Below are positions 4,371-32,318 of a stretch of DNA of 64,000 nt, one piece after another; within the stretch, counting starts at the first letter, position 1, and each line of letters starts with the position of its first letter. The DNA is taken from NCBI GenBank assembly GCA_029856155.1, contig JAHQWL010000092.1, positions 21,489 to 85,488 on the forward strand, read 5' to 3'. The position numbers were made by a program, and so were the translations under genes. The DNA is from Promethearchaeia archaeon. GTDB taxonomy: Archaea > Asgardarchaeota > Lokiarchaeia > Sigyniarchaeales > SOKP01. Under the pieces are notes generated by a model. The model worked only from the letters and a program-made list of their open reading frames with translations. It was not told the DNA's origin and ran no database searches.

Positions 4371-4386
4371 ACTGTATATATCAAGC
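4371..4386. promoter_or_regulatory. Imperfect copy of the GCTTG-N6-CAAGC operator (ACTGTATATATCAAGC) upstream of MttB-1
   Basis: Right half-site CAAGC is intact; close to the reverse complement of the 27490 site. Confidence 0.5.
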
Positions 4387-4472
4387 ATAATAATTATTAC
4401 TACAATATCTATATTAGATTCAAGAAATCTATCATAAAAAAATAAATAGTAAATTAAAAAAAGGTAATTTAA

Positions 4473-5987
4473 ATGAGAGAAGGCGAAAAAGTCAAATTTC
4501 CTGGTATGAAAAGGATGTGGAGAATATTCACAAAAGAAGAATTGGAAGTAGTAGATAATGCTGCTTATAATATTTTAAGCGAAATGGGTGTTCATATTGA
4601 TGATAAAGAATGTATAGAGTATCTTAAAGAGACTCCAGTTGAGATCGATGAGAAAGAACTCATCGTGAAGTTTCCTGAGTATTGGGTTCGAGAAATGATC
4701 GGTCGTGCCCCAAGAACTTATTTACTTGCGGGAAGAGATCCAAAAAGAGATTTACATGTGACAAGCCCTCAAAGAGACTTTTATGCTTTAATTACAAGCG
4801 GATCTACAAAATATTATGAATGGGATGATACTGCTAATAAATGGATTTCTAAAATACCTGGGGAGGAAGAAGTGATAAAAGCATTTAAAATGGTCGATGG
4901 TTTAGACCAATATGAAGGATTTTTTGGTACACTTCTGGAAGATGTTAAAAAAACACAACAAGGTCTTCCTGCGGAACTTCACACTTTATATAATAAAATG
5001 AAATATTCAACTAAATTTGGAGGGCCTACTGCTATTACGGAAGGAGGTCTTGCTGAATGGGATTATGTAGGAAAGCTAGCCGCTGAAGTTCAAGGTGGTT
5101 TCGATGAATTGACAAAACGTCCCATAATCGCAGGATTACCAACATGCATCGGGCCTTTGACAAGCACTCGGCAGAATTTCTGGGCAGCTGTAGGAAGTGC
5201 AAAGTATCATTTACCTACATTCCCATATTGGGGAGGGATTTCCCCATTTACTGCTCCAGCAACAGCACTTGGACAAGTTGTACTAGCTGTTGCTTGTTGT
5301 CACTATGCCATGGCAGTCTCTCAATATCTTGATCCTGGGACAGCCACTTGTCCATGGCCGATGTGTACATCAACTGATCCTAATACTGGTCAATTAGCAG
5401 GTATTCCTTCAGCTAGATACGTTCATGCAATGGGAATGCAACTTTATCAAGATCTATATAATCTTGTAGTTTCGCAGTGTTCTTATTGTTTAACAACTTC
5501 TCTAGATGAAGCTGCTACTGCATGGTTATCTTCAGTTTCAACTAATACTTTGCTAGGGGGAAATATAGTACAATTTGGAACAACACCCCAAGCATTTATG
5601 TTTGAAACAATACCAATAGGAGCAACCCTTTTGGATTTGGTTAGAGGGTCACTTTTTGCACAGAATGAATTTATTTCCAGATTTGATGATGAACATCTCG
5701 CTTTGGATGTGATCAAAGAAGTAGGGCCAAAGGGTATGTTTACCACCCATCCACATACATTAAAATGGATAGATCCTGCAAAAGGATTATATTGGCGCGC
5801 AAAAGATTGGATTCATGAACATGCTGATCAATGGCTTGCTAAAGGTGCAAAAAGTTGGGTATATGACACCTGTCGACAGCGTTTAAAAGAGTTGGAAAAG
5901 CACGAACCAGAACCAATAGCAAAAGATGTAGATGAGCGTTGTAATGCTTTATTAAAACAAGCAGATGAAGAACTGGCACTCTTTTAA
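4473..5987 (+). CDS. Trimethylamine methyltransferase (MttB) superfamily, non-pyrrolysine, copy 1
   Basis: N-term 'AAYNILSEMGV...VKFPEYWVREMIGRAP..YLLAGRDPKRDL'; C-term 'LALDVIKEVGPKGMFTTHPHT'; no in-frame TAG. Confidence 0.85.
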   Translation: MREGEKVKFPGMKRMWRIFTKEELEVVDNAAYNILSEMGVHIDDKECIEYLKETPVEIDEKELIVKFPEYWVREMIGRAPRTYLLAGRDPKRDLHVTSPQRDFYALITSGSTKYYEWDDTANKWISKIPGEEEVIKAFKMVDGLDQYEGFFGTLLEDVKKTQQGLPAELHTLYNKMKYSTKFGGPTAITEGGLAEWDYVGKLAAEVQGGFDELTKRPIIAGLPTCIGPLTSTRQNFWAAVGSAKYHLPTFPYWGGISPFTAPATALGQVVLAVACCHYAMAVSQYLDPGTATCPWPMCTSTDPNTGQLAGIPSARYVHAMGMQLYQDLYNLVVSQCSYCLTTSLDEAATAWLSSVSTNTLLGGNIVQFGTTPQAFMFETIPIGATLLDLVRGSLFAQNEFISRFDDEHLALDVIKEVGPKGMFTTHPHTLKWIDPAKGLYWRAKDWIHEHADQWLAKGAKSWVYDTCRQRLKELEKHEPEPIAKDVDERCNALLKQADEELALF

Positions 5988-6109
5988 TGAGTGAATAATT
6001 TAATATAATTTCTATTTTTTTTATTGATTTTCCTTTTTTTTAAATAGATTTAACCTTTAAAACAAGTATAAATTTTATTTAATACACCATAAAAGAGAAT
6101 ATAAATAAT

Positions 6110-6125
6110 GCTTGAAATAGCAAGC
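6110..6125. promoter_or_regulatory. Palindromic operator GCTTGAAATAGCAAGC
   Basis: Perfect GCTTG-N6-CAAGC (extends to TGCTTG..CAAGCA) upstream of the small B12-binding gene. Confidence 0.75.
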
Positions 6126-6223
6126 AAATAATATTTATGGTATTTCTTCCAATCGTCCTCTAATGTCATAGGAAATTAGATATTTCTAAATTTAAAATAC
6201 ATACTTATTTTAATTCTTTAAAT

Positions 6224-6604
6224 ATGGAAAAAATAGACATTATAATAGGAAATGTAAAAGACGAGATCCATAACATTGCAAAGACTATACTTGTGAAAGA
6301 GATTGAAAAAATTGGTCTTAACGCATTGGATTTAGGAATTTCAGTTCCAGTCGAAAAGTTTGTCGAGAAAATTAAGGAAACAGATGTAAAAATATTGGTA
6401 CTTACTGGATTACTCAACTCTGCCCCAGAGTACATGAGGCAAATTAGTAAAAAGCTTCGAGAGGAAGGGATAAGAGATGATGTGAAAATTCTTATCGGTG
6501 GACCTAATGTTAACGAAGATTGGTTGAAAAGATCAGAAGCAGATGCTTTTGCGAATAATATTTCAGAGGGAATCAAAATATTATGTTCTTGGAAAGATAG
6601 GTAG
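6224..6604 (+). CDS. Stand-alone cobalamin-binding domain protein (no four-helix cap)
   Basis: Degenerate DxHxxG ('DEIHNIA'), 'DLGISVPVEKFV', 'ILIGG', 'ADAFANN'. Confidence 0.8.
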   Translation: MEKIDIIIGNVKDEIHNIAKTILVKEIEKIGLNALDLGISVPVEKFVEKIKETDVKILVLTGLLNSAPEYMRQISKKLREEGIRDDVKILIGGPNVNEDWLKRSEADAFANNISEGIKILCSWKDR

Positions 6605-6663
6605 TTTTTCCTAAAAACTAAATTAAAATTTTGTTTTATTATTTTTCAATAAAGATGAGATTA

Positions 6664-7308
6664 TCATTTAAATATTGAATTAAATATTGTTTTTTCTATT
6701 TTTCTAATATGCTCGGTGATTGCACTTTGAGAAATGCCGAAATGTTCTGCTAAATCTGAGGAATTAATCTTACGGGGTATTTCAAAATATCCATTCTCTA
6801 CTGCGTAATATATTATTTCTTTTTGACGCTCAGTTAATAACAGAGAAAGATGTTTCGCATCTGGAACAATTGTAGAGATGTTAAGTATTTTAAAATCATT
6901 TCCATATCTATTTACTTGATCTTCTATGAGTTGATCAATGGTATCAACATCAGCTATCATAGACGTGATTAATTGATTGCCTTCCTTAATTAAAGGCGGT
7001 TCTATCAAGATATTAAGGTTTGAGAATAGTTGTTTCATCTCATCGACCCACTGATGTTTAATAATACAAACATACTCTTTTTTATTTTTATCTTCTGCTA
7101 TAACTTCTATATAATCAATTCCAAATTGGCCCTCTAGCTCTTTAGGATGAAAATTAGGGTCTTTAAATTTAAGCTTATTAGTACCATACATCATATTTTC
7201 GCTTAATCGATGAACTTGAACTAATTCATAACCATCAAGTAAATCGAATAATTCTTTATATTCATCCGGAAGAGGAGCTTTATATACAAGCTTTTTTAGT
7301 CGTTTCAT
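6664..7308 (-). CDS. HTH-10 (Bat-like) archaeal transcriptional regulator, copy 1
   Basis: C-term 'LTERQKEII..AVENGYFEIPRKINSSDLAEHFGISQSAITEHIRKIE'. Confidence 0.88.
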   Translation of the reverse strand: MKRLKKLVYKAPLPDEYKELFDLLDGYELVQVHRLSENMMYGTNKLKFKDPNFHPKELEGQFGIDYIEVIAEDKNKKEYVCIIKHQWVDEMKQLFSNLNILIEPPLIKEGNQLITSMIADVDTIDQLIEDQVNRYGNDFKILNISTIVPDAKHLSLLLTERQKEIIYYAVENGYFEIPRKINSSDLAEHFGISQSAITEHIRKIEKTIFNSIFK

Positions 7309-7347
7309 AGTTTAGAATTTATCTAAAAAATAAAGATATTTATAATT

Positions 7348-7363
7348 GCTTGTGTTCGCAAGC
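7348..7363. promoter_or_regulatory. Palindromic operator GCTTGTGTTCGCAAGC
   Basis: Perfect consensus in the divergent intergenic region between HTH-10 and MttB-2. Confidence 0.75.
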
Positions 7364-7436
7364 ATAATAAATTTTTGTCAAACAAATTTTATAACTTTGC
7401 TTCTATACTTAATAGAAAAAAAATCATAAAATTGAG

Positions 7437-8960
7437 ATGATTATTATTAGAGAAGGAGAAAAAGTAAAATTTCCAAGTTATGATAAATTACTACGGCTAG
7501 CAACAGAAGAACAATTAAAACTTTTTGATTCGGCAGCTTATAGAATTCTGAGTGAAATGGGTGTGCATATTGATGATAAGGAAGCTATCGAGTATTTTAA
7601 AGATACTCCCGTCGAAATTGATGAGAAAGAGCTCATTTTTAGATTTCCTGAGTACTGGGTTCGGGAAATGATCGCAAAGGCGCCATCTTCATACGTTCTT
7701 GCGGGTCGTAATCCCAAAAATGATTTACCAATTACAGGTCCCAAAAGAGATTATTATATCTTACCTGCAGCAGGAGCAACGAAACAATACAAATGGAATG
7801 AATCGTTAGATCAATGGGAATCTAGTATAACTGATTTCAACGATGTATATGAAAGTACTAAGATGATGGATGCAATTGATACGTATGAAGGACTATCTAA
7901 TAGTATAGTTGAAGATGTCAAATCTTCTCATGCAGGACTTCCAGCAGAACTACATGCTGCGTACGCAAAGTGGAAAGGAACATCTAAATTCATAGGACCA
8001 ATTGCTATAACAGAAGGGGGTACTGCTGAATGGGATTATCTTGCACAGATGGCAGCGGAAGTTCAAGGTGGTTATGATGAGTTTCGAAAACGCCCCATAA
8101 TAGGCTGTTTACCTACAGCTATTGGACCATTGACTTCTACACGACAGAATTTTTGGGCAATGGTGGGAGGAGCAAAACATCATATACCTAGCTTTCCATA
8201 TTGGGGGGGCACAGCTCCATTCACTGCACCTGCAACTCCAGCGTCACAAATAGCTTTATCACTGGCATGTACTCATTATGGAATTGCCGTGTCGCAATAT
8301 TTGTCTCCTGGAACAGCTGCACTGCCCTGGGTAATATGTACAGCAGTTGATCCGAATTCCGGACAACTAGCTCAAGCTCCAATGTTTTTACTAACTCATG
8401 GAATTGGAAATCAAGTGTACCAAGATTTATATGGTATTGCTACATTTGGATGTGCCCATGCCTTAAATGGTTCCTTAGAAGAAGTTGCTACTGGCTGGAT
8501 GACAAATCTACTTACATTGACTCTTATGGGTTTGAATGTTCTTCAATTTGGAGGCCCTCCAAATGCATTTATGTGGGAAGCCTTACCGATGGGTGAATCA
8601 ATCGTTAATTATGTAAAACAATTTTTATTCAATATGAATAATAGCTTATTTCCTGAGGATGAGGATGCCTTGTCACTTAAAACAATTCTGGAAGTGGGAC
8701 CAAAAGGAAGATTTGCTACTCATCCACATACCTTAAAATATATTGATCCCAAGAAGGGATTATATTGGTATTCTAAAGATTGGATTCATGAACATTCGGA
8801 TCAGTGGTTAGCAAAAGGAGGAAAACGTTGGGCATATGACACTTGTAGAGAACGATTGAAAGAGTTGGCAAAGCACGAACCTGAACCTTTAGGAAAGGAT
8901 GTTGAGGAACGACTTCAGTCAATATTGAAAGAAGCAGATGAGGAATTAGCATTATTCTAA
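7437..8960 (+). CDS. MttB superfamily methyltransferase, non-pyrrolysine, copy 2
   Basis: Clear paralog of 4473..5987 (shared 'GLPAELH', 'GPLTSTRQNFWA', 'FPYWGG', 'DWIHEH'). Confidence 0.85.
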   Translation: MIIIREGEKVKFPSYDKLLRLATEEQLKLFDSAAYRILSEMGVHIDDKEAIEYFKDTPVEIDEKELIFRFPEYWVREMIAKAPSSYVLAGRNPKNDLPITGPKRDYYILPAAGATKQYKWNESLDQWESSITDFNDVYESTKMMDAIDTYEGLSNSIVEDVKSSHAGLPAELHAAYAKWKGTSKFIGPIAITEGGTAEWDYLAQMAAEVQGGYDEFRKRPIIGCLPTAIGPLTSTRQNFWAMVGGAKHHIPSFPYWGGTAPFTAPATPASQIALSLACTHYGIAVSQYLSPGTAALPWVICTAVDPNSGQLAQAPMFLLTHGIGNQVYQDLYGIATFGCAHALNGSLEEVATGWMTNLLTLTLMGLNVLQFGGPPNAFMWEALPMGESIVNYVKQFLFNMNNSLFPEDEDALSLKTILEVGPKGRFATHPHTLKYIDPKKGLYWYSKDWIHEHSDQWLAKGGKRWAYDTCRERLKELAKHEPEPLGKDVEERLQSILKEADEELALF

Positions 8961-8977
8961 AGCGAGGTGAATAAAAA

Positions 8978-9646
8978 ATGGCAAGTAAAGAAGAAATCAT
9001 TAATGGAATGAAAGACGCTATTATAACCTACAATAAAGCACAATGTTTAGAGCTCGCCAAGCAAGGGATTGCAGAAAAAGTAAAATCTTTAGAATTAATA
9101 CAAGAAGGACTAACTCCTGCAATACAGGAACTCGGAGAGAAATTCGGAAGAGGTGAGATTGCTCTTCCATATCTCATGGTGGGCGCAGAAGCTATGCAAG
9201 AAGCTCTTAATTACATCTTGGAAACCATGCCTAAAGGAGAATATAAACCGAAAGCAAAAATGGTACTCGGGACCGTAAAAGGAGATATTCATGATTTAGG
9301 AATTAGTATCGTAGAAGCTGTGTTTCAAGCTAATGGAATCCAAGTGTATAATCTCGGTCGCGATAATCCCAAAGAAAAGTTTGTGGAAAAGGCAGAAGCT
9401 GAAGAGGCAGACATTATCGGTACGTCAGCCTTGCTCACAGGTACTATGTTCGAGCAGAAAGTTGTTATCGAATATTTAAAGAAGCAAGGACTCCGAGACA
9501 AATATATCTATCTGATTGGAGGAGGTGCTTGTCCTTCCAGCGAATGGTGTGATGAGATCGGTGCAGATGGATGGGCTACTGATGTTATGCTCGGGCTCGA
9601 TGCTGCTAAAAAAGCTTTAGCAGAAAAGAAGGGAATAGAAATTTAA
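8978..9646 (+). CDS. Corrinoid protein (MttC/MtgC-like; cap plus B12-binding domain), copy 1
   Basis: 'GTVKGDIHDLG' (DxHxxG), 'IIGTSALLT', 'IGGG', 'IGADG'; GAGGTGA RBS. Confidence 0.92.
   Translation: MASKEEIINGMKDAIITYNKAQCLELAKQGIAEKVKSLELIQEGLTPAIQELGEKFGRGEIALPYLMVGAEAMQEALNYILETMPKGEYKPKAKMVLGTVKGDIHDLGISIVEAVFQANGIQVYNLGRDNPKEKFVEKAEAEEADIIGTSALLTGTMFEQKVVIEYLKKQGLRDKYIYLIGGGACPSSEWCDEIGADGWATDVMLGLDAAKKALAEKKGIEI
9233..9330 (+). repeat. 98-bp exact direct repeat, second copy at 14760-14857, inside the duplicated corrinoid genes
   Basis: Manual alignment at offset 5527. Confidence 0.85.
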
Positions 9647-9699
9647 ATTTTATTTTTTTATAAATAAATAATAAAAATGATAAAAAAGTAATGTAAAAG

Positions 9700-10032
9700 A
9701 TGGTTGATGTACAAGAAGGATTTGAATTAATGAAGAAATATTTTAAACCAGAAGTTGCTAAAGAATTTAAGAAGAAAGTGGCTGTTCAATATAATATTAA
9801 AGGTCCAGGTGGAGGTACATGGCAAGTAATCTTTGACAGTGGTAATATGGATATTGTTGAAGGAGAGAAGGAAAATGCTATTCTTAAATTTAACTATGAC
9901 GCTGTAGAGAGCTTTATAGGCATTCAAAAAGGAGAGATTGATGGTATACAAGCATATACTATGGGAAAACTCCAAATCGAGGGCCCTATACCTCTAGCTC
10001 AAAAACTTGCAGACATTTTTAAACGTGAATAG
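9700..10032 (+). CDS. SCP2 sterol/lipid-binding domain protein, copy 1
   Basis: 'VQYNIKGPGGGTW', 'GEIDGIQAYTMGKLQIEGPIPLAQKL' match the SCP2 signature. Confidence 0.85.
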   Translation: MVDVQEGFELMKKYFKPEVAKEFKKKVAVQYNIKGPGGGTWQVIFDSGNMDIVEGEKENAILKFNYDAVESFIGIQKGEIDGIQAYTMGKLQIEGPIPLAQKLADIFKRE

Positions 10033-10197
10033 TAAAATATTTATCAATTTTTTTTATTTTTTTGATTTTAAAACCCTAATTTTTAAGGCAAGACGTTTAC
10101 ATTTTTCGAGATTAGTTTTTGAATAATTAATGAGAAATTTAAACAAAAAAAGTGAAATTTCAAGAATTTAATAGTAAAAATATTTAAGTTACCTATT

Positions 10198-11103
10198 TTA
10201 GTTGATTTTAAATACAGGATGAGTTGGAGGAGGCATCTTACCTTCATCGAACAATAATTGAGAATGAGCAGCTTTAATGAATGCAACGTTAGGATATACT
10301 AAATTTGCTAATTGAATAGGACCATAGAATATGAAGTCTGCTCCCGCTGCTAAAGTAATCGTTGAGGCAACTACTTTTATATATTTTTTGATATGCCCAA
10401 ATTTAGTAACCAAATTTATCCAGGAATCTGCTAAATTTTGTCCTGCAGTTCCAGCAGGATATCCATACTTATTTTTTACTTCGTCAATCGTATTAAGAGC
10501 AATCCCTAAGGATGTAAAGTCAATAATACATGTATCAATTAGAAAGTTATTTTTTTTAAAATTGTAAGACAAAGCTTTTTTTATGAGTTTATCAGTAATT
10601 TCCATTCGAGCTTCAGTTGTCCAGCATTGTGATTCAATAGGAAGAAGAAAAAATGTTTCAATGTCCGTTTGACTTAATAGTTCAAATTCTTCATCATAAG
10701 AAGAGGAGGTAATTGTATTATATACAACCTCTTTATCTAATCCATGTTCAATAAGATAATTTAGCATTGGTTGCTTAACTTCCCAATAAGGGGCGTCCAC
10801 AAGAACGGGAGTATCGGTAACTGAAAAAACAAAATCTAAAATAGGTTGAATTGATTCCTTAAAAGAAAGAATAACATCGAGTAAGGGTATCAAGCCTGTT
10901 TTATCTGCTAACTCCTCTTGCTCTTTAATTAATTTTTCAGCATATTCTTTGTTTATTTGACCTTTTCTCTCATCCCTAAAGATTTTTTTCTGCTTTAAGT
11001 AAAATATAGTACCCGCTAAAGCAGTGGGCACGCTTCTCGGATCTCCACCCACTATATATTTTCCTATCTTGTATGACTTTTGTTCTACGTTATATTTAAA
11101 CAT
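10198..11103 (-). CDS. MtrH/MtgA-like methylcorrinoid:pterin methyltransferase, divergent copy (start corrected to ATG at 11103)
   Basis: 'MFKYNVEQK...GG...PTALAGTIFY'; 301 aa, the same length as its paralog; the longer ORF-track call overlaps the upstream gene. Confidence 0.82.
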   Translation of the reverse strand: MFKYNVEQKSYKIGKYIVGGDPRSVPTALAGTIFYLKQKKIFRDERKGQINKEYAEKLIKEQEELADKTGLIPLLDVILSFKESIQPILDFVFSVTDTPVLVDAPYWEVKQPMLNYLIEHGLDKEVVYNTITSSSYDEEFELLSQTDIETFFLLPIESQCWTTEARMEITDKLIKKALSYNFKKNNFLIDTCIIDFTSLGIALNTIDEVKNKYGYPAGTAGQNLADSWINLVTKFGHIKKYIKVVASTITLAAGADFIFYGPIQLANLVYPNVAFIKAAHSQLLFDEGKMPPPTHPVFKIN

Positions 11104-11131
11104 CGGTTTAAAACAATTGATATCTTGAATT

Positions 11132-12037
11132 TTATCCAATTTTAAACACTGGATGATTTGTCGGAGCCATTTTTCCTTCATCGAACAATAGTTGTGAATG
11201 CGCAGCTTTGATGAATGCAACATTAGGGTATATGATGTTCGCATGCTGCACAGGACCATATAGTAAAAAGTCAGCTCCCGCTCCTAAAGTAATACTTGAA
11301 GCAACCACTGTCGCGTATTTTTTAATATCGCCAAATTTCGCTTTTAAATTTCTCCACGTATCCACAGCGTTGTGCGCACCAGATCCTACAGGATATCCAT
11401 ATTTATTCTTTACTTCATACATCGCGCTCATTGCTAAACCTAATGATGTAACATCCACAACAGCAGTATCAATTAAGAAGTTATGGTCTGCAAAATTAGC
11501 TTCTGTTGCTTTTTTAACGAGATTACCGATTACGTCCATTCTTGCTTGAGTAGTCCAATTCTTTGATTCCATTCCTAAAAGAATGAAATTTCTGATATTA
11601 CTTTCAGTTAATAAATTATATTCCTCCTCATTGGATTCTGGTGTGAGTGAATTATAAATGATTCTGTCTTGAATCCCCATTTCTTTAACATAGTTTAGTG
11701 CATTTATTTTTACATCTTGCGTTGGTGCATCTAATATAATAGGAACGTCGGTGACATCTACTACAAAATCAAGAATGGGTTTAATAGATGCTTCATAGGA
11801 TAAAATTACATCTAATCCGGGAGTTAAGCCTGTTTTATCTGCCATATCTTCCTGATCTTTAACTAATTTTTCTGCGAAATCCTTGATTATTTCTCCTTTA
11901 GACTCATCCCTAAAAATTCCTTTTTGGCGTAAGTAGAAAATCGTTCCGATTACCGCTGTCGGGACTTCTCTTGTATCTCCACCTATTGTATATTTTCCTA
12001 TATTATAAGATTTTTGCTCGACGTTATATTTGAACAT
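11132..12037 (-). CDS. MtrH/MtgA-like methylcorrinoid:pterin methyltransferase (start corrected to ATG at 12037)
   Basis: 'PTAVIGTIFY', 'IIYNS', 'LIDTAV', 'GYPVGSGAHNA', 'GADFLLYGP'; AGGAG RBS upstream of 12037. Confidence 0.87.
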   Translation of the reverse strand: MFKYNVEQKSYNIGKYTIGGDTREVPTAVIGTIFYLRQKGIFRDESKGEIIKDFAEKLVKDQEDMADKTGLTPGLDVILSYEASIKPILDFVVDVTDVPIILDAPTQDVKINALNYVKEMGIQDRIIYNSLTPESNEEEYNLLTESNIRNFILLGMESKNWTTQARMDVIGNLVKKATEANFADHNFLIDTAVVDVTSLGLAMSAMYEVKNKYGYPVGSGAHNAVDTWRNLKAKFGDIKKYATVVASSITLGAGADFLLYGPVQHANIIYPNVAFIKAAHSQLLFDEGKMAPTNHPVFKIG

Positions 12038-12106
12038 TATATTTACTCCTTGCAATTAACAAATAATATTATTTTGCGAAAATGAATCACCTTATTTTTA
12101 ATTTCA

Positions 12107-12122
12107 GCTTGTTATTTCAAGC
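12107..12122. promoter_or_regulatory. Palindromic operator GCTTGTTATTTCAAGC
   Basis: Reads GCTTGAAATAACAAGC on the minus strand, identical to the 16466 and 25317 sites; upstream of the MtrH pair. Confidence 0.8.
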
Positions 12123-12150
12123 ATCATTAAATTCTACTCTTTTCAAAATT

Positions 12151-12795
12151 TTACTTGAATATAGAAAAAAAAATAGTCCTCTCAATTTTTCGCAAGTGTT
12201 CACAAAATGCACTTTTAGAAATACCAAAATGATTAGCTATAGTTTCAGAATTAGTTTTACGAGGGATATCATAGTATCCGTGTTCCACTGAATAATAAAT
12301 AATCTCTTTTTGTCTTTCTGTTAAGAGTAAATTTAAATTACTCCTATTAGGCTGCACAGAATTGATACTTAAAATTTTGTAGTTATCGCCGTAAATATTT
12401 TTCTGTAAATCAATAATTGTATCGATATTTGCACCAGGTGTAATATAAGTTATGATTAAAGAATCATCTTCCATAATAATCGGAGGTTCAATTAGGATTT
12501 CAGAAACCTTAAAAAAATTGCGAAGTTCCTCATACCAGCGATGCTTAACAAGACAAATAAATTCATTTTTCTGGGTATCTTTTGCTAAAATTTCGATAAA
12601 TTCAATTCCAAATTTATTTTGAAGATTCTTGGGGTTAAAATCTTTATTTTTAAATTTAAATCGCTGAGTCGCATAGATATGAATATCATCAAACCGGTGA
12701 ATTTGAAGTAATTCATATTTTGTTAATAAATCAAAAAAGTCTTGATAACTAGGGTTAATTGGGATTTTGAGGACAATTTTTTTCAATTTTTTCAT
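12151..12795 (-). CDS. HTH-10 (Bat-like) transcriptional regulator, copy 2
   Basis: 'LTERQKEII...GYYDIPRK...IANHFGISKSAFCEHLRKIE'; paralog of 6664..7308. Confidence 0.88.
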   Translation of the reverse strand: MKKLKKIVLKIPINPSYQDFFDLLTKYELLQIHRFDDIHIYATQRFKFKNKDFNPKNLQNKFGIEFIEILAKDTQKNEFICLVKHRWYEELRNFFKVSEILIEPPIIMEDDSLIITYITPGANIDTIIDLQKNIYGDNYKILSINSVQPNRSNLNLLLTERQKEIIYYSVEHGYYDIPRKTNSETIANHFGISKSAFCEHLRKIERTIFFSIFK

Positions 12796-12972
12796 ATTAT
12801 TCAGATATATTTTAGTTCGGATATGTGATTTCTATTCATAAGCATTAATTAACTGATCTGATAACCTAAGACCCAACGAGTCAAGCACAATTAATATAAA
12901 TTTATGAATTTTAAATAAATTGCTATTTTTCAAATCTATTTTAAAGAAATATAATTAAAAAGGGAATAATAA

Positions 12973-14487
12973 ATGAGAGAAGGAGAAAGAGTAAAATATC
13001 CTAAAATGAATCGAATGTGGCGTATCGCATCTAAAGAAGATTTAGAGAGAATCGATAATGCTGCATATCACATTTTAAGTGAAATGGGAGTTTTTATCGA
13101 TGATAAAGATTGTATCGAATACTTAAAAGATACTCCATTAGAAATTGATGAAAAGGAACTCATTGTGAAATTTCCAGAATTTTGGGTACGCGAGATGATC
13201 GCAAAAGCTCCAAAATCATATATACTTGCTGCTAGGGATCCTAATAATGATTTATTACTATCAAGTTACCACGACGATTTTTATAACTTATTTACGAGTG
13301 GTTCGACGAAAATGTATCTTTGGAATGAGCAAACAAATCAATGGGACTCTAGAATTCCCGGTGAAGAAGATGTAATTAGAGGATTTAGGATGATTGATGC
13401 TGTGGATGCTTATGATGGATTTTTTGGTACACCCGTGGAAGATGTGAAACGAACAAATCAAGGGCTTCCCGCTGAGCTTCATACTACCTATAATAAAATG
13501 AAATGGTCTACAAAACATGGTGGAGTATGTGCGATCACCGAAGGAGGATTAAACGAATGGGACTATGTCGGTAAACTTGCCGCTGAAGTTCAAGGTGGAT
13601 TTGATGAGTTAAAAAGACGACCCATAATCGCAGGTTTACCAACCTGCATTGGGCCCATGACTAGTACCCGTCAGAATTTCTGGGCTGCTGTGGGAAGTGC
13701 TAAATATCATTTACCTACAGTACCTTATTGGGGGGGAACGGCACCATTTACAGCACCCGCAACTGCTCCAGCAATGAATGCAATGGCTTTGGCATGTACG
13801 CATTATTGTATAGCTGTTTCACAATATCTCGATCCTGGAACGGCGGCAGTTCCTTGGCCTAATACTTCACCTGTTGATCCACAATCTGGTCAATTAGCGA
13901 TAAATCCAATTGCTACAATGGTACTTGGAATGGGAGGTCAAGTTTATCAAGATTTATATGGTCTTCCTATTGCGGGATGCGCATATTGCTTATCATCATC
14001 TTTAGATGAAGCTGGTGCTACATGGGCATTAAACTTATTAACAGAGTTATTATGGGGAGTGAATGTGCAACAAGTCGGATCCACACCCGGAGCGTTTATG
14101 TGGGAAACGATTCCAATGGGAGAAACATTAGTAAATTATACTAAGCAGTTCTTATTCGAAATGACTGAAGATCTTTTAAATATTGATGAAGAACACTTAG
14201 CTTTAGATGTAATAAAAGAAACTGGTCCTAAAAAAATGTTCACGACTCATCCTCACACTCTAAAATGGATTGATCCCAAGAGGGGGTTATTCTGGCATGC
14301 TAACGACTGGATCCATGAACATTCGGATCAATGGCTTGCGAAGGGAGCTAAAACATGGGTTGAAATTTGTCGTGAACGTTTGAAAGAATTAGATAAACAT
14401 CAACCAGATCCACCAATCCCAAAAGATGTAGATGAACGATGTAATGCACTTTTAAAAGAAGCAGATGAGGAACTCGCATTGTTTTAA
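12973..14487 (+). CDS. MttB superfamily methyltransferase, non-pyrrolysine, copy 3
   Basis: Paralog of copies 1 and 2; no in-frame TAG. Confidence 0.85.
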   Translation: MREGERVKYPKMNRMWRIASKEDLERIDNAAYHILSEMGVFIDDKDCIEYLKDTPLEIDEKELIVKFPEFWVREMIAKAPKSYILAARDPNNDLLLSSYHDDFYNLFTSGSTKMYLWNEQTNQWDSRIPGEEDVIRGFRMIDAVDAYDGFFGTPVEDVKRTNQGLPAELHTTYNKMKWSTKHGGVCAITEGGLNEWDYVGKLAAEVQGGFDELKRRPIIAGLPTCIGPMTSTRQNFWAAVGSAKYHLPTVPYWGGTAPFTAPATAPAMNAMALACTHYCIAVSQYLDPGTAAVPWPNTSPVDPQSGQLAINPIATMVLGMGGQVYQDLYGLPIAGCAYCLSSSLDEAGATWALNLLTELLWGVNVQQVGSTPGAFMWETIPMGETLVNYTKQFLFEMTEDLLNIDEEHLALDVIKETGPKKMFTTHPHTLKWIDPKRGLFWHANDWIHEHSDQWLAKGAKTWVEICRERLKELDKHQPDPPIPKDVDERCNALLKEADEELALF

Positions 14488-14504
14488 AGAGAGGTGAATT
14501 ATAA

Positions 14505-15173: not shown

Positions 15174-15237
15174 TTTAATTTTTTTTTTAAATTTAGAATA
15201 AATTAATAATAAAAATAAAAGAGGAATGATATAAAAG

Positions 15238-15570: not shown

Positions 15571-15603
15571 ATCGATTATTAAACGAAGGAGTTGTGATAC
15601 AAC

Positions 15604-16377: not shown

Positions 16378-16465
16378 TTGAGAATCCCAAATTATCTTTT
16401 TTTTTTAATATCTGATTAGGATTAAAAAAAGTTTATAACATTTTATTATGAATAACTTTTCAATT

Positions 16466-16481: not shown

Positions 16482-16570
16482 AAAATTGATATAAAAATTA
16501 TAACATTTTTCTTCACAAGATTTTATTATTTAATATCCAATCATTATTAATATAAATTCTAGACAAAAAA

Positions 16571-20265: not shown

Positions 20266-20398
20266 TATTATTTCTTTCAAGGTGAATGGGAAAGCTCAAT
20301 TAAAAGAATTACTCGTAATTTATCTCGAAATAAAAAAACCAATTCAAATTTATGTTATATTACCGAATTTAGAACAAATTTCTTAAAAAATCCTTAAT

Positions 20399-22921: not shown

Positions 22922-22922
22922 T

Positions 22923-25286
22923 TTGATAAAAAGTAGAATATCTGAATATATTAGTACATATTTTGGGAGCGTAATTTGTGAAAAAGCTAATAAAATTCAA
23001 AATGATCTTTTGAATATCCTTTCAATAAAAGAAAATCCTACAAAAATACGAGCTATTATATTTGAAAAAGGTAATTCAATACATATTGTCATTGATGAAA
23101 AGAACAAAGTAATATTCCATGATTGTCTTTCTTTTTTTAATCCAGAAGAAAATTATCCTTGTGCTCATTTAACTAAACTCTTGCTAGCTATAAATCCTAA
23201 CACAGCTATGCAGATATTTCAGGATTGGCATCTTTATAAATTTATAAATCAATCTGATAGAGATATATCAAAAAATTTTTATTTATTATCAGAACTCTTT
23301 TTTCATTCCAATTTATTTATCGATTCATTGCATTTTCTTAACGAAGCTATATTTTATGCGGAGGCTAATGTTGATTTAATCAAATTATATATAGGGCGTA
23401 TAATAAATAAGAACCTATTTAGTAGATTATTTTTTTTTCTTGACGATCTTTTTGAAAATTATCCAGATAATAACTTTTTAGAGCTATGTGGGAAAAATCT
23501 TAGAAAGGGGATAATAAAGCTCTTTAAATCTATTCCATCTCTTTCATTATCTGATTTATTAAAAATTATAAAATCCCTTTACAACATTGGAAATAACATT
23601 GATTTAATAATAGGTACTGAAGAATTTATTAATGAGATACAAAAATTATTCAACTCTAAAAATTTTAATTCACAATTCTTTGCACATATATGTTTACAAT
23701 TATTATATAACAAGAATAAAATCGATCAAGTTCATTTTGAAAGAATTACCAACACTAATAACGATTTAATTGTTTTTAAAAAGAAGCTTGCTAAAAAACT
23801 TGATGTTTTTTTAGAAGATGTTCACACTTTAAGCGAATACGAACAAATTGAGTTCATTTTGAAACTCTATCATATCCCTCAAGAAAAATTTCAAGAAAAA
23901 TATTATCATTTTATAACTGAAAGGCAACAAATAGAGGAAACGTTTCATGCTAGAAAGCTTGCTTTTTTAAAGCTCTTGATTAAGCGAAGCAAAGTCCTCC
24001 TGAATTCTAAAGTTGATATTGAAAAAGAGAGAGACAAATATCGTATAATTCATGAACCAGATATTATAAAAAATCAATTTTATACGGATTATCTTCTACC
24101 AAGACTAGGCTTTTTTGGCAATAATTTTGAGATGATTAAACCTCGGGATATTGCAATAAACTTTTATCTCTTTTACCGTTTGTATCGAATTAATTGGAAT
24201 GAACTTCCAGATGTTTATTATTTTAGAAATAAGTTTTGGGATGAATTAGCTATCCAAAATATAAAATCGAAACATGGGTTGCCCCTAATGAGATATGGAG
24301 TCGATTATACATTGGACGCCGGTCTCGAATTTTTGGATAATAATGAGATCCTTATAATTGAATGGGATCTTGCGGATAAGTCATATTATGGAGGTGTTGT
24401 AATGGCGTTTGGAACCGCTAAGATGATACCGGATTATGAAAATCCTTTATTATATGACATTAAACCTTTTGACTTAACTTTCTGTTTTAAAAATCCTAGA
24501 GAGATTGATAGCGAAAATCTTAAAATTATGAAAATTATATCCAAATGTTCCTTTAAAGATACGATATATAAGGTTTCGAGAGGAATGTCCTTTATAGAAG
24601 GGTCTTATCCCCTTTCCCTAATATTAGATGTACTAAAGCATGAGATTTCTCCTCTTGATGCTATCAATTTATTAGATGAAAGCCCTAAAAAAAACTACGT
24701 ACCGCATTTTTATCAATTTATTCATGAGTTTAAAGAGTTTATCTTTAATGAGGTTTTGAAAGCCAAGTTAGAAAATATAGGTGAGTTAAAGAAAATTTCT
24801 GATACTAATGTAGAAACCATTATTAAATTAATAGGATTGACCACTAGTTTGGCCGGAATTCAATTTCCATATTCCGAGACGATTAAACTTTTATTAAAAC
24901 CGGGTATCACGAGAGATTCATTACGTTTTAAACTAATCAATATTGTTCATGAATATATACAAGCCATTTTAAACAGTGATAAAATTGGGAATACAATCAT
25001 CTTTGATCTAAATAAAATGAAAAATACTCTATTTTCGCAATATTCTGAGCAGATCTTAAAAATCAGAAAAGAAGAATTTGAATCCGCAATAATATATCAG
25101 ACTAAGGAAAGAGGTTCTTTCTATTTTGATCTCTCAAATATTGCCCTCACTTATTATGGAATCCAAATTATGAAGATACTAAAAATACTGGGAGAATTAA
25201 ATATAAAAAGTACTATTTTTGATCGATTTGCTGAAATAGCTCAAAAATTAGGTTTGAATCTGAATATTATTATCAATAGTAATTAA
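22923..25286 (+). CDS. Large hypothetical protein with a SWIM-like Zn-finger near the N-terminus
   Basis: 787-aa ORF starting 1 nt after the VWA gene stop; 'FHDC...PCAHL'. Confidence 0.6.
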   Translation: MIKSRISEYISTYFGSVICEKANKIQNDLLNILSIKENPTKIRAIIFEKGNSIHIVIDEKNKVIFHDCLSFFNPEENYPCAHLTKLLLAINPNTAMQIFQDWHLYKFINQSDRDISKNFYLLSELFFHSNLFIDSLHFLNEAIFYAEANVDLIKLYIGRIINKNLFSRLFFFLDDLFENYPDNNFLELCGKNLRKGIIKLFKSIPSLSLSDLLKIIKSLYNIGNNIDLIIGTEEFINEIQKLFNSKNFNSQFFAHICLQLLYNKNKIDQVHFERITNTNNDLIVFKKKLAKKLDVFLEDVHTLSEYEQIEFILKLYHIPQEKFQEKYYHFITERQQIEETFHARKLAFLKLLIKRSKVLLNSKVDIEKERDKYRIIHEPDIIKNQFYTDYLLPRLGFFGNNFEMIKPRDIAINFYLFYRLYRINWNELPDVYYFRNKFWDELAIQNIKSKHGLPLMRYGVDYTLDAGLEFLDNNEILIIEWDLADKSYYGGVVMAFGTAKMIPDYENPLLYDIKPFDLTFCFKNPREIDSENLKIMKIISKCSFKDTIYKVSRGMSFIEGSYPLSLILDVLKHEISPLDAINLLDESPKKNYVPHFYQFIHEFKEFIFNEVLKAKLENIGELKKISDTNVETIIKLIGLTTSLAGIQFPYSETIKLLLKPGITRDSLRFKLINIVHEYIQAILNSDKIGNTIIFDLNKMKNTLFSQYSEQILKIRKEEFESAIIYQTKERGSFYFDLSNIALTYYGIQIMKILKILGELNIKSTIFDRFAEIAQKLGLNLNIIINSN

Positions 25287-25316
25287 AAAAAGCATTATAT
25301 GGACTCTTAACTATTA

Positions 25317-25332
25317 GCTTGAAATAACAAGC
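25317..25332. promoter_or_regulatory. Palindromic operator GCTTGAAATAACAAGC
   Basis: Perfect consensus (extends to TAGCTTG..CAAGCTA) upstream of the third SCP2-like gene. Confidence 0.8.
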
Positions 25333-25404
25333 TAAAAATATTTAAAATTGACATCTTGATAGTTATTAATGAAAATTATCTGAAAATTCATAAGAGGATT
25401 TGAA

Positions 25405-25830
25405 ATGAGTGAAGAAAAGAGTAGGAATTTAGAAGGATTTGCTCACATGATTTATAATCAATTTGAAAGACCCTTAAAGGACAATCAAAAATTTAAAGAG
25501 AAATATAAGGATGCCAAATTGAAAATATTTTTAAATATAACCGATGCAACTCATGCAGCTTTATTAACGATAGATAAAGGAGCCATAACTGTAAATGGAA
25601 TTCTGCAAACAGATAAAGAGGGATTAATTAAAGCTGCTGAAGATGTTGACGCTCTAATTAAAACCGATATGAATACTTTTGTTTCGATGGAGAATATGTC
25701 CACCCTAAAAACAATAGGGAAGATTTTTGGGGGAAAACTTAAAATTAAGGGTGGGAAGAATTTAAGAATACTTCAGGATTTAAGAAAGTTAGCTACAGAA
25801 GCAGATGCGGATGTTAGTGAGTTTTTTTAA
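25405..25830 (+). CDS. SCP2-like lipid-binding domain protein, copy 3 (divergent)
   Basis: 'LTIDKGAITV...DALIKTDMNTF...GKLKIKGG'; GAGG RBS. Confidence 0.68.
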   Translation: MSEEKSRNLEGFAHMIYNQFERPLKDNQKFKEKYKDAKLKIFLNITDATHAALLTIDKGAITVNGILQTDKEGLIKAAEDVDALIKTDMNTFVSMENMSTLKTIGKIFGGKLKIKGGKNLRILQDLRKLATEADADVSEFF

Positions 25831-25939
25831 ATCATGTAAACCATGGAATATTAATATTAACGAATAATTCTTTATTATTTTTTTTAATTTATTTTACGTT
25901 AATTAATATTAGTAATTTTGAGTAAAATGTGTTTATTGG

Positions 25940-27253
25940 TTGTTTTCAAATATAGAGAGGTATAGATGCTTGGAGGATCTTAACATACAACAGCTTGAAA
26001 AGCAGTACTTTAGTGGTAAGGTAAGCAAGAAATCCATTGTTGATAAACTCATTTTAAAAATAGAATATAATAATGAAGTCTCTATTAGAATTAAAAGTTT
26101 AGAAACATTAAGTAAATTAAATCTATTATCTGATATGCATTTTGATTATTTAGAAAATCTAGCTATAGCTGATTTGAATGATCAAATTAGATCTATAGCA
26201 ATAAAAACTATTATAGACCAGTTCTATGATAAAGCGGACTTTTTAATAAATTGGATTGTTTATTTTGAGAATTCACCTTTTCTATTAAATGTGGCTATTA
26301 ATTCATTGATTAAGATTGACGAGCAATACTTAAAATATCTTTTATCAGAATCCATAACAAAAAAAATATCTGAAAAATCAAACAAGACAGATGAACTATT
26401 CAAGAAAGAATTAAAAAACTTATTTAACGAAAAACCACCAAATATGCTCCCAATTGATCAACTTACACAAATATTCCTTAATTTCTGTTTTATTTTAAAC
26501 AATGAAAAAAAATATCTTTTTTCTGAAAATCTAAACACTTCATCACTTATGTATAAACTTGAAGAGGGATGTATTACTGAATTAAGAGTGTGGGGTCTAA
26601 AAATTATTAAAGTCAGTGATCTTGAAGGTATCAATTTATTAACAGAATTGCAGATCCTTGATCTATCTGGGAATAATTTAAAGGAAATTGATGGGTTGAT
26701 AAATCTTTCCAAATTAAAATTGCTAAAATTTGGTGATTTAAGTTATGATACTGGTAATCAAATAAGTGAGATTAAAGGTCTTAATTCCTTGCCTAATCTT
26801 AAGATTCTCAACCTATCAAATAATTTTATTAAGCAAATCAAAGGTATTGATAATTTAAAAAATTTGGAATATTTGTATTTAGTTAATAATTCTATTTCAG
26901 AGATACAAGATATTGAAAATCTTGAAAAACTGAGATATTTGAATCTTGAGAAAAATAATATCTCTAAAATTGAAAATATTGAAATCTTATCTAATTTAGA
27001 AACAATTGTATTAAACGACAATAATATAAAAGTATTAGAAAACGTCGGAACCCTGAATAAGCTCAGAGAAATAAGGATTAGTAGGAATCCACTTTCCGAG
27101 ATAGAAGTTAAGCCTAGTTTAAATAATATCTGTTTAAAGCTTCATACATCAGAAATAGAACGATTATCCAAGTTAAATGGAATTGACTCATTTACAATCA
27201 AAGCTATTGGAGATGAAAAACCTAACGAATATACTACTCGTTATCAACAATAA
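25940..27253 (+). CDS. Leucine-rich repeat protein (SDS22-like LRRs) with N-terminal HEAT-like helices
   Basis: Repeats of 'LxxLxLxxNxIxxIxxL' (e.g. 'LKILNLSNNFIKQIKGIDNL'). Confidence 0.85.
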   Translation: MFSNIERYRCLEDLNIQQLEKQYFSGKVSKKSIVDKLILKIEYNNEVSIRIKSLETLSKLNLLSDMHFDYLENLAIADLNDQIRSIAIKTIIDQFYDKADFLINWIVYFENSPFLLNVAINSLIKIDEQYLKYLLSESITKKISEKSNKTDELFKKELKNLFNEKPPNMLPIDQLTQIFLNFCFILNNEKKYLFSENLNTSSLMYKLEEGCITELRVWGLKIIKVSDLEGINLLTELQILDLSGNNLKEIDGLINLSKLKLLKFGDLSYDTGNQISEIKGLNSLPNLKILNLSNNFIKQIKGIDNLKNLEYLYLVNNSISEIQDIENLEKLRYLNLEKNNISKIENIEILSNLETIVLNDNNIKVLENVGTLNKLREIRISRNPLSEIEVKPSLNNICLKLHTSEIERLSKLNGIDSFTIKAIGDEKPNEYTTRYQQ

Positions 27254-27489
27254 ATAAGATATTGCCTTATTTAGGCATTCCTTTTTACCTTATCATATAT
27301 TAATATGCTGATAGTCTCATTAAGATGCATTAACAAGGTCATGGAAACTGTTAAAATCAAAAAAGAAAGTTAAAAAGAATAATAAACAAAATGAATTTAT
27401 TTTCAAGTTTTCAGACATTTGAATTATATCTTATGTGATTATTTTTATTAAATTATGTTGGAATAGAATTTATCAATTATATGTTTTGA

Positions 27490-27505
27490 GCTTGCTATTT
27501 ACAGT
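27490..27505. promoter_or_regulatory. Imperfect operator copy GCTTGCTATTTACAGT upstream of the ABC permease
   Basis: Left half-site is intact; reverse complement ACTGTAAATAGCAAGC is a hybrid of the 4371 and 6110 sites. Confidence 0.45.
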
Positions 27506-27648
27506 GTTTTAATTTTTATGGTATTAATAGCATGATATGGTTTAGTTAACATAAGATTTATTTAACTTTTTCTTAGCAATTTTTATATAGTAGTTTGATA
27601 TTATTTTTATATTAACTTTTAATTGTTAGATTATTAATTTAAGAGGGT

Positions 27649-30773: not shown

Positions 30774-30967
30774 AAGAGTGAATTCAATTTTTTATTTAAC
30801 TTAAAAAGATTTTTTTTATTTTTGGTAATTATATATGTCTAATGCAACAGGCATGAATATGCAAATACCCAAAATTGTTGGATTGTTAAAATTATTATAA
30901 AAATAAAAGAAATGTTATAATCTAAACATAAATTATTTATCTTTTTTTTAATTTTCTGATATGAATT

Positions 30968-31273
30968 ATGGAAGAAGTTCCAGAAGAGAAAAAAATTGTA
31001 AGAATTGATCAAGTATATGTGGTCGGAGGAAGTTTTGATGAACCTTCAGATTTTACAAACAAGGTTAATCGAAATCTTTTACTATTACATGAAAGCAAAA
31101 AATACTATAAAATTAAAGATATAAAGTTCAATATTTTTAATGACCAACGCTTTCCTCAGTCAACTCCTATATACCTAGCCTTTATTGTTGCTGAAGTAGA
31201 TGTAGATGTTACCCCAGAACCAGAAAAAAAAAGAAAGAAGAAAAAGAAGCAAAAGAAAAAGAAGAGAATTTGA
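30968..31273 (+). CDS. Small hypothetical protein with poly-basic C-terminal tail
   Basis: 101-aa ORF ending 'PEKKRKKKKKQKKKKRI'. Confidence 0.6.
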   Translation: MEEVPEEKKIVRIDQVYVVGGSFDEPSDFTNKVNRNLLLLHESKKYYKIKDIKFNIFNDQRFPQSTPIYLAFIVAEVDVDVTPEPEKKRKKKKKQKKKKRI

Positions 31274-31473
31274 TAATATTATTATACTTTTAACTCCTGA
31301 AGTTATACCACAGATAATAGAGGCTTTAGTTGAGAATAGCAACAAAAGTTCATTACCTTTAAATCAATTTTATAATTACGATTGATACATTTACCTTATT
31401 TTTTAAACTAAAATTCAATGATGGGTTCCCATTCCCTTAGTAGAATCATTCAATTGTTATTATATGATAATTT

Positions 31474-32121
31474 TTAACTGAATATTGTGTGATAAATTAT
31501 TTTTTCTATTTTCCGCAAATGTTCATATAATGCACTCCGAGAAATTTTAAAATGATTCGCGATTTTCTTTGAATTGATTCTACGAGGTATTTCAAAATAT
31601 CCATGCTGAATAGCGTAATACACAATTTCTTTCTGACGGTCTGTTAATTTTAAAAAAAGATTTTCATAGTTAACTTTTATGTTAGATATGCTTAGAATCT
31701 CCAATTTTCCTTCATAAAAGTGATTTAAGGAATTAACGAATTCATCAATATTTTTACTTTCTGTTATAATACTTACTAAAAGACGATCTTTATCTAGAAT
31801 AATAGGAGGATCGATAATCAGATCTAGTTTATCGAGGAATTCTTTCGTTTCCTTAACCCAGTTATGCTTAGAAAAGAAAATGTATTCTTTATTCCCCCTA
31901 TCCTCATTTATCACTTCTATATATGACATCCCATAATGTTCGCCTTCCAACATTTTCGGATGCATTTTAGGATCCTTGAATTTTACCTTCTGTGTTGCAA
32001 AGATTTGATCCTCGTCTTGACGGTGTATTTGGAGTAATTCATATTTTTCCAATAGGTCAAAGAATTCCTTAGACTTTGGATCTAAAGGTATTTTCAGAAC
32101 AATCTTTTTTAATTGCTTCAT
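31474..32121 (-). CDS. HTH-10 (Bat-like) transcriptional regulator, copy 3
   Basis: 'LTDRQKEIV..AIQHGYFEIPRR...ISRSALYEHLRKIE'; paralog of the other two. Confidence 0.88.
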   Translation of the reverse strand: MKQLKKIVLKIPLDPKSKEFFDLLEKYELLQIHRQDEDQIFATQKVKFKDPKMHPKMLEGEHYGMSYIEVINEDRGNKEYIFFSKHNWVKETKEFLDKLDLIIDPPIILDKDRLLVSIITESKNIDEFVNSLNHFYEGKLEILSISNIKVNYENLFLKLTDRQKEIVYYAIQHGYFEIPRRINSKKIANHFKISRSALYEHLRKIEKIIYHTIFS

Positions 32122-32152
32122 TTGTTAGTATAAATATTAACAGATTTAGATA

Positions 32153-32168
32153 ACTTGAATTTTCAAGC
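32153..32168. promoter_or_regulatory. Operator ACTTGAATTTTCAAGC (one mismatch)
   Basis: Lies in the divergent intergenic region between HTH-10 and the hydrolase; an extra CAAGC half-site at 32260-32264. Confidence 0.68.
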
Positions 32169-32318
32169 TTAAGATTATTATATAAATAAAAATTCTCTTT
32201 TAATTAGCTTTATGGTATATTACCATAAGTTAGATTAAAATGGATTTAAAAATTAATATCAAGCACTTTTCATAATTAAAAAAAAAATAACTAAATAAAA
32301 AAAAATAGGTGTATTATT

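Follow-up and report, generated by a model that had tools for sequence, protein, structure and literature searches.

The closest characterised relative of the regulators described here is Bat of Halobacterium salinarum, the sole characterised member of the HTH_10 family (PF04967) that we could document, which is a local activator with a small regulon and acts via an upstream sequence in the bop promoter (PMC3184054). EnfR, an archaeal protein of the Tfx family, is a dimer that binds a pseudo-palindrome in the promoter and functions as a repressor (PMC10570040). For corrinoid methyltransferases, the Msr regulators of Methanosarcina acetivorans have been described: MsrA/B activate mtaCB1 and MsrC/F activate mtsF/mtsD, and no regulators are reported for the methylamine-type (MttB-family) genes (PMC3419521). 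Clusters of non-pyrrolysine MttB, MtbC-like and MtrH genes in Asgard and TACK archaea have been proposed as a basis of non-methanogenic methylotrophy, feeding the methyl group into the tetrahydromethanopterin (H4MPT)/tetrahydrofolate (THF) branch of the Wood-Ljungdahl pathway and putting their hosts in competition with methanogens for methylated compounds; that work gives neither regulators nor cis elements (PMC11291895). Here, we describe a conserved palindromic cis element, rCTTG-N6-CAAGy, that defines a compact regulon of corrinoid methyltransferase genes, together with three local HTH_10 regulator genes (HTH1, HTH2 and HTH3), on a 64,000-nucleotide stretch of a Promethearchaeia archaeon (contig JAHQWL010000092.1, positions 21,489 to 85,488; "the window" below). 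The window comes from a contig of 85 kb in an assembly of 4,099,592 bases (4.10 Mb) with 30% guanine plus cytosine (GC). To our knowledge, transcription control in Asgard archaea is almost unstudied. Our literature search yielded no HTH_10 operator of the palindromic type, nor any HTH_10 operator beyond the haloarchaeal Bat work, no regulator for the non-pyrrolysine MttB/MtrH clusters, and no paper that ties HTH_10 to corrinoid methyltransferases or to Asgard regulons. A one-component regulator with a palindromic operator is of a known type, found here as a candidate pair in a lineage and a family with none characterised.

Like Bat, the three regulators carry a C-terminal HTH_10 domain (Pfam scores of 70.3, 64.4 and 61.9 bits against a gathering cut-off of 23.1), whereas no GAF, PAS or BAT domain was detected in them by the Pfam scan, Bat itself having GAF and PAS domains. 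They also differ from Bat in their length (about 215 aa), their Asgard host, their putative corrinoid methyltransferase targets and their candidate 16-bp palindromic operator. In the predicted structure, the C-terminal 65 residues superpose on the sigma-4-like helix-turn-helix (HTH) domains of LuxR/GerE/NarL-type dimers (DesR, DosR, EsrB) and of EnfR. The predicted mode of dimerisation is likewise similar to that of LuxR/GerE-type regulators and EnfR. The LuxR/GerE/NarL-type regulators have a receiver or autoinducer domain, in contrast to the double ferredoxin-like module modelled at the N-terminus here. The Msr regulators are likewise several local paralogues placed over corrinoid methyltransferase sets, there in a methanogen and for methanol or methylsulfide substrates. 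With the Asgard/TACK clusters the locus shares its MttB-like, corrinoid and MtrH content, which here is triplicated with RACo, SCP2 and chaperonin-like genes and located on an island.

The sequence-only reading of this DNA had proposed GCTTG-N6-CAAGC as the operator of a regulon of about 30 kb, with five perfect copies. These five were found exactly where they had been placed (6110, 7348, 12107, 16466 and 25317; sites A to E in Table 1). Chance occurrence in the window was estimated with 100 dinucleotide-preserving shuffles, which contained a mean of 0.03 perfect copies and never reached five (0/100). The five are also the sole perfect copies in the whole 4,099,592-base genome. Copies with a single mismatch number 30 genome-wide, 29 of them inside long open reading frames; the only intergenic one is that at 32153 (site F), which had also been reported. 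The relaxed core CTTG-N6-CAAG occurs 46 times, with 40 coding copies and six intergenic ones, and these six are precisely the window sites, so that unrelated intergenic DNA, where the motif might have been equally frequent, contains none. By simple arithmetic, we put the chance that six intergenic sites would all land in one 26-kb stretch of a 4.1 Mb genome at roughly 1e-11. A chance origin of the motif is ruled out by the window shuffles and the genome-wide counts, and because these counts confine the intergenic copies to the locus, the placement of the motif is far stronger than the window alone could tell. No site, even with two mismatches allowed, lies near the other corrinoid loci of the genome (MttB on contig C98, RACo on C35, MtrH on C88 and C86).

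Read toward the downstream gene, sites C (as the reverse complement), D and E are one and the same 16-mer, GCTTGAAATAACAAGC, in agreement with the earlier reading. Site A differs from it by one base of the spacer (AAATAG), and site B has the spacer TGTTCG. The element is two-fold symmetric, with the centres of CTTG and CAAG 10 bp, or about one helical turn, apart. The perfect copies had been described as intergenic and about 70-100 bp upstream of start codons; they are intergenic, at 70-98 nt from the structural genes and 39 nt from HTH1. Each transcription unit of the island is preceded, at 70-98 nt from its ATG, by a full site or by the half site CAAGCAYAAT. The motif thus marks one local regulon, composed of an acquired methyltransferase island and a resident pair of HTH3 and a hydrolase gene. 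What did not hold is its continuity over 30 kb, since the permease, IDH and unk101 genes lie in between without a site.

Conservation of the sites was visible in island copies of two other genera and in one metagenome contig. In G151, a member of another genus with island proteins 51-88% identical to those of the window, the orthologous promoters contain ACTTGAAATAACAAGT before RACo, GCTTGAAATAGCAAGT before the 141-aa protein gene and ACTTGTTATTTCAAGT before MtrH1, and the HTH/MttB divergent region has a half-conserved copy. Similarly, the sites of G053 read GCTTGTTATTTCAAGT at the MtrH1 promoter and ACTTGAAGAATCAAGC in the divergent region. When the MtrH1 promoters of the window, G151 and G053 are aligned, CTTGAAATAACAAG is the longest invariant block, and the 14-base core of site C is unchanged. 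In the RACo and 141-aa promoter pairs, the site and the AT-rich stretch just downstream are kept, and the distance to the ATG varies. The metagenome contig L094, with an MttB3 91% identical to that of the window, has a perfect GCTTGACATAACAAGC, a near copy, and an TCAAGCACAAT element 87 nt before MttB3 that is also present in G045. Finally, all examined loci with a full-length HTH3 orthologue (16/16; 60-88% identity) have GCTTGAAwwTTCAAGT about 30 nt before the ATG, with invariant six-base arms, two variable central bases and diverging flanks in the alignment. Within about 350 kb of sequence from related loci, no intergenic CTTG-N6-CAAG core is found elsewhere than at such a promoter.

Two ways of searching relatives were set aside. 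The exact 16-mer motif is present in 14 related genomes in 0-4 copies each, a background level, with none near HTH_10 orthologues; the conserved sites are visible only after the outer base is relaxed. The HTH3-type pattern gave 61 copies in 54 same-genus genomes against 21 for the reversed control, an excess that is mostly coding and chance-like.

The gene order of same-genus relatives runs from the ACL genes straight into the permease, IDH, unk101 and HTH3 genes and a divergent gene of 738/802 aa. As judged from the junction alignment, the island was inserted between ACL and permease and is absent from same-genus relatives. With the query used here, an MttB3-type gene was found in 7/154 genomes of the order and in 0/53 other genomes of the genus. 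The regulator tree has two clades with 100/99 support: the island clade, with HTH1, HTH2 and the regulators of G151, G034 and G026, and the HTH3 clade, which also takes in the island regulator of G053. HTH3 itself is 80-88% identical in same-genus relatives. Because the tree splits in this way and the same-genus relatives keep HTH3, the phylogeny identifies HTH3 as resident, and HTH1 and HTH2 as having arrived with the island.

We consider it likely that rCTTG-N6-CAAGy is the operator of HTH1, HTH2 and HTH3. These proteins are proposed as the binders because of the distribution and conservation of the motif, their position as the only regulators encoded in the locus, their HTH fold and the dimer model. 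The three are mutually 50-52% identical, and the earlier claim that each has a full or half site in its own divergent promoter holds, with a full site for HTH1, the single-mismatch site for HTH3 and only a conserved half site for HTH2. The AlphaFold model of HTH1 has a mean predicted local distance difference test (pLDDT) score of 86. Its residues 150-214 form a sigma-4/LuxR-like HTH resembling sigma-28, DesR, EsrB, DosR and the archaeal EnfR (Z 7-8), with Z 7.2-8.1 and a root-mean-square deviation of 1.4-2.3 Å for the last four. Residues 1-148 are modelled as two ferredoxin-like repeats, with Ta1207 as the best solved match (Z 10.4 over 140 residues); this double domain is probably sensory. 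Against clusters with PF15915 or PF24278 (BAT, HVO_0513_N), domains that occur next to HTH_10 in other archaea, the N-terminal domain reached template modelling (TM) scores of 0.50-0.52, a likeness of predicted structures alone. A sequence search against solved structures returned nothing significant (E 0.02 or worse), and Foldseek matches to DapE lid domains and RNA polymerase subunits were discarded at TM scores below 0.35.

The predicted HTH1 homodimer scored 0.51, compared with 0.01 for the best control, a mark reached by 20/30 proteins solved as pairs and by 1/23 solved as single chains. Contact agreement between runs was at least 75%, and the partner pLDDT was at least 80. The modelled interface involves residues 151-177 and 202-214 of the HTH domain, including its last helix. 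The prediction supports a symmetric homodimer of HTH_10, and such a dimer fits half sites 10 bp apart. The residues of the recognition helix gave no assignment of paralogues to sites.

An AT-rich, TATA-like box lies within 1-9 nt downstream of each site and is kept in the orthologues. At the structural genes, the gap between site and box is 5-9 nt, about the size of a transcription factor B recognition element (BRE), and the spacing leaves room for a leader with a Shine-Dalgarno sequence because the ATG is 60-98 nt away. At HTH1 and HTH3, the gap is 0-3 nt (3 nt at HTH1) and the ATG is 31-39 nt away. A Shine-Dalgarno sequence precedes most structural genes and none of the three HTH_10 genes; the HTH1 and HTH3 mRNAs are probably leaderless. 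At site F, a canonical TTATATAAA box is located at 32178-32186, 9 nt off on the hydrolase side, and a start about 26 nt beyond it would fall at a second palindrome (32210-32228). In the comparison with Ptr2 and TFB-RF1-type activator sites, a conserved AT-rich box is found 1-9 nt downstream of each site, in a background of 30% GC.

In the mechanism that we propose, symmetric HTH_10 dimers would contact two CTTG arms spaced by one helical turn. At structural genes, a dimer beside the BRE/TATA region would aid recruitment of TATA-binding protein (TBP) and transcription factor B (TFB), and in divergent promoters one site would serve both directions. At the regulators' own promoters, which place it closer to the ATG, the site would overlap the BRE, where binding may have a repressing effect. 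Such a circuit would switch the methyl-transfer machinery as a whole, with HTH1 and HTH3 under self-regulation. If the HTH_10 proteins do bind, we lean modestly toward activation of the structural genes, which fits the promoter sequences since the sites are just upstream of conserved AT-rich boxes.

The same operator and the same binders could instead work by repression, a substrate-derived ligand releasing proteins that otherwise block the contact of TFB with the BRE, or the transcription start. The promoters of the regulators point this way: site F is at -32 to -47 from the ATG of HTH3, a gene without a Shine-Dalgarno sequence, and a conserved TTTATATAA box lies 10 nt away on its far side, so that one transcript start could fall in or beside the site. 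Moreover, only 3 nt separate the site from the TATA-like box of HTH1, and EnfR, which is among the structural neighbours of the HTH domain, represses from a pseudo-palindrome over a TATA-like box (PMC10570040). At the structural genes, however, the site precedes the conserved AT-rich box by 5-9 nt and the ATG by 60-98 nt, the usual position of an archaeal activator site, and Bat is an activator (PMC3184054). Repression is for us a tentative alternative, less likely than activation.

Several observations weigh against the reading that we favour. The three paralogues are not assignable to individual sites, the promoter of HTH2 carries a half site only, and the conserved, oriented spacer AAATAA is unexplained by a purely symmetric dimer. 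TATA and BRE calls are ambiguous in DNA of 30% GC, and a promoter profile upstream of tRNA genes (15 tRNAs called) showed no clean positional signal. In addition, the more distant island copies of G034 and G026, with HTH_10 proteins 46-50% identical, lack the palindrome and have other motifs instead, CCTC-N7-CAAGCAsA before MttB and ACCTC-N6-CAACCYCAA before MtrH. Because of these palindrome-free copies, we take the link between regulator and site as lineage-specific and not as universal.

The second of these motifs, in the form ACCTC-N6-CAACCYCAA(TCTAATTAA), was mapped before the MtrH genes of palindrome-free islands at L025:11640-11700 and 12630-12680, L026:3700-3800 and 4790-4860, L092:~3920 and L093:~250. 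The regulators of the G034/G026 subclade may use it as their operator.

The HTH3-type site is also found before a second gene in two same-genus species, as cttaaGCTTGAATTTTCAAGTtatag at L030:551-566 (G015) and L084:1498-1513 (G008). The G015 copy precedes a gene for a PFL-like glycyl radical enzyme by about 37 nt, and the G008 copy is directly downstream of a distant HTH_10 paralogue. No second-gene site of this kind is present in the genome of the window.

An extension of the proposal would give the shared core a role in the spread of the island. A horizontally mobile methylotrophy island bringing HTH_10 regulators that share their operator core with the resident, vertically inherited HTH3 would be wired at once into an existing host circuit, which includes the tannase-like hydrolase here and the glycyl radical enzyme in sister species. 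Heterodimers of resident and imported HTH_10 proteins could then read the asymmetric island sites, with their CTTGAA and CTTGTT arms in fixed orientation. We offer this as speculation and rate it as rather unlikely.

The site might also be real and its binder encoded elsewhere, or the copies might be passive traces left by a mobile element or by the duplication of promoter cassettes. With MttB paralogues 61-69% identical, the MttB/corrinoid/SCP2 cassettes are indeed duplicated, and the island itself was inserted, so some copies could stem from duplication; a further point in favour is that G015 and G008 have the site away from HTH3, in G015 before the glycyl radical enzyme gene. The window sites, however, precede non-homologous genes (MtrH, RACo, unk141, the B12-binding protein) with dissimilar flanks, and they are kept across genera while the flanks diverge. 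A distant factor would have no intergenic copy outside the locus to serve, and the extra site of G008 adjoins another HTH_10 gene. Both variants are improbable in our judgement. RNA or DNA hairpins (leader stem-loops, processing sites or terminators) are the least credible source of the palindromes: the 26-mers around the sites do fold at -3.5 to -8.8 kcal/mol (z-scores -2.3 to -4.8) and two sites of G151 have both bases of the outermost pair replaced (G..C to A..T), but the arms are invariant in the 16 HTH3 loci with no compensatory changes (which the neighbouring palindrome does have), the HTH3-type site of 6-base arms and two central bases makes full pairing impossible, the sites lie in divergent promoters and 30 nt from start codons without a Shine-Dalgarno sequence, the downstream flanking AT-rich box is conserved, and a search of 4000-33000 at Rfam gathering thresholds matched no family.

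The neighbouring palindrome, TTATGGTATATTACCATAA at 32210-32228, is located between HTH3 and the hydrolase gene, and its arms change in a compensatory way in the orthologues (GG..CC to GA..TC). Its role may be that of a second operator, or of a hairpin in the 5'-leader of the hydrolase mRNA.

Half sites and degenerate sites had been listed along with the perfect copies, and most of them do not differ from background. Solitary 5-base half sites are not enriched as a class: the locus has five in its 4053 intergenic bases, where about 2.2 would be expected. That at 32260 has no counterpart in the orthologous regions, and the possible site at 18469 corresponds to a CAAGC half site at 18480, in the short spacer between RACo and the chaperonin-like gene. 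Those before MttB1 and MttB3 stand out. They are both extended to CAAGCAYAAT (4382-4391 and 12882-12891), at the same distance of 86 nt from the respective ATG, and this extended form is intergenic only six times in the genome, three of the six being upstream of the three MttB genes. MttB1 and MttB3 have no full site. The element at 12871-12891 is also kept in the DNA of two other genomes, G045 and metagenome contig L094. Solitary half sites are, by these counts, mostly noise, with the exception of the two before MttB1 and MttB3.

In the L094 contig, two tandem sites of the same orientation, ACTTGAAATAACATGC and GCTTGACATAACAAGC, were found about 77 nt apart (L094:4853-4948), 174 nt before an HTH gene. 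They may precede a small unannotated transcript.

Gene identities were assigned with Pfam and NCBIfam scans of the window proteins. The scans gave MTTB at 95-111 bits, B12-binding and B12-binding_2, MtrH at 193-222 bits and RACo_C_ter at 317 bits. The three MttB frames are uninterrupted, with no in-frame stop, and score far under the cut-off of the pyrrolysine-type equivalog. On these assignments, the locus has the full set for a non-pyrrolysine MttB-type corrinoid methyltransferase system, with MttB as methyltransferase 1 (MT1), a corrinoid protein, an MtrH/MtgA-like methyltransferase 2 (MT2) and the activase RACo. Mapped positions of the genes and sites are listed in Table 1.

Table 1. Mapped features of the locus, in window positions
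Feature	Positions	Strand	Sequence	Remarks
Inserted island	4250..27550 (about; 23.3 kb)			Defined by junction alignment with same-genus relatives
Half site	4382..4391	+	CAAGCATAAT	CAAGC ends 86 nt before MttB1 ATG
MttB1	4473..5987	+		MttB-superfamily methyltransferase
Site A	6110..6125		GCTTGAAATAGCAAGC	Ends 98 nt before the small B12-binding protein gene (6224)
Small B12-binding domain protein	6224..6604	+
HTH1	6664..7308	-		HTH_10 regulator, 214 aa, island clade
Site B	7348..7363		GCTTGTGTTCGCAAGC	Divergent promoter; 39 nt to HTH1 ATG, 73 nt to MttB2 ATG (7437)
MttB2 operon	7437..10032	+		MttB2, corrinoid protein (8978), SCP2 protein
MtrH1 and MtrH2	10198..12037	-		Tandem MtrH/MtgA-like methyl-corrinoid:pterin methyltransferases
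Site C	12107..12122	-	GCTTGAAATAACAAGC	Ends 70 nt before MtrH1 ATG (12037)
HTH2	12151..12795	-		HTH_10 regulator, 214 aa, island clade
Variant non-palindromic element	12871..12891	+	ACCCAACGAGTCAAGCACAAT	CAAGC ends 86 nt before MttB3 ATG; divergent HTH2 promoter
MttB3 operon	12973..16377	+		MttB3, corrinoid protein (14505), SCP2 protein, short-chain dehydrogenase
Site D	16466..16481	+	GCTTGAAATAACAAGC	Ends 89 nt before RACo (16571)
RACo group	16571..25286	+		RACo corrinoid activase, chaperonin-like protein, VWA protein, 787-aa protein; downstream of site D
Site E	25317..25332	+	GCTTGAAATAACAAGC	Ends 72 nt before the 141-aa gene unk141 (25405)
unk141 and LRR protein	25405..27253	+		141-aa protein with a weak likeness to SCP2, and an LRR protein; downstream of site E
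Permease, IDH, unk101	27948-31273			No site
HTH3	31474..32121	-		HTH_10 regulator, 215 aa, resident
Site F	32153..32168		ACTTGAATTTTCAAGC	One mismatch; 31 nt to HTH3 ATG, 9 nt to the TTATATAAA box facing the hydrolase gene
Hydrolase	32316..34724	+		Tannase/feruloyl-esterase-like, GC-rich, divergent from HTH3; frame opens at ATT/ATA

The sites point to accessory genes that would be co-regulated with the methyltransferases (SCP2, chaperonin-like, VWA, LRR and the 141-aa protein). Such a list is of use in setting the limits of the functional system and in looking for the inducing substrate. The locus also offers a complete and testable candidate regulator-operator pair: the proteins, at about 215 aa, are expressible, the sites are defined 16-mers, and several genera supply natural variants.

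Some start codons had to be reconsidered. The true start of MtrH1 is the ATG at 12037, preceded by GGAG. As listed, the MtrH2 frame (10198-11259) overlaps the end of MtrH1 (11132-12037) by about 128 nt, and because alignments to relatives begin only at residue 51-53, its real start is probably near 11100. The hydrolase gene, at about 44% GC in a genome of 30%, has a frame that is open and conserved from ATT ATT ATA right after AGGTG, with no ATG, GTG or TTG before 32508, and its relatives are alike, which suggests a non-canonical start codon. Finally, a fourth MttB-family match, by far the strongest (253 bits), was mapped to the minus strand of C98:43272-44711. It contains three in-frame TAA codons; the match may represent a pseudogene, or its alignment may extend beyond the frame.

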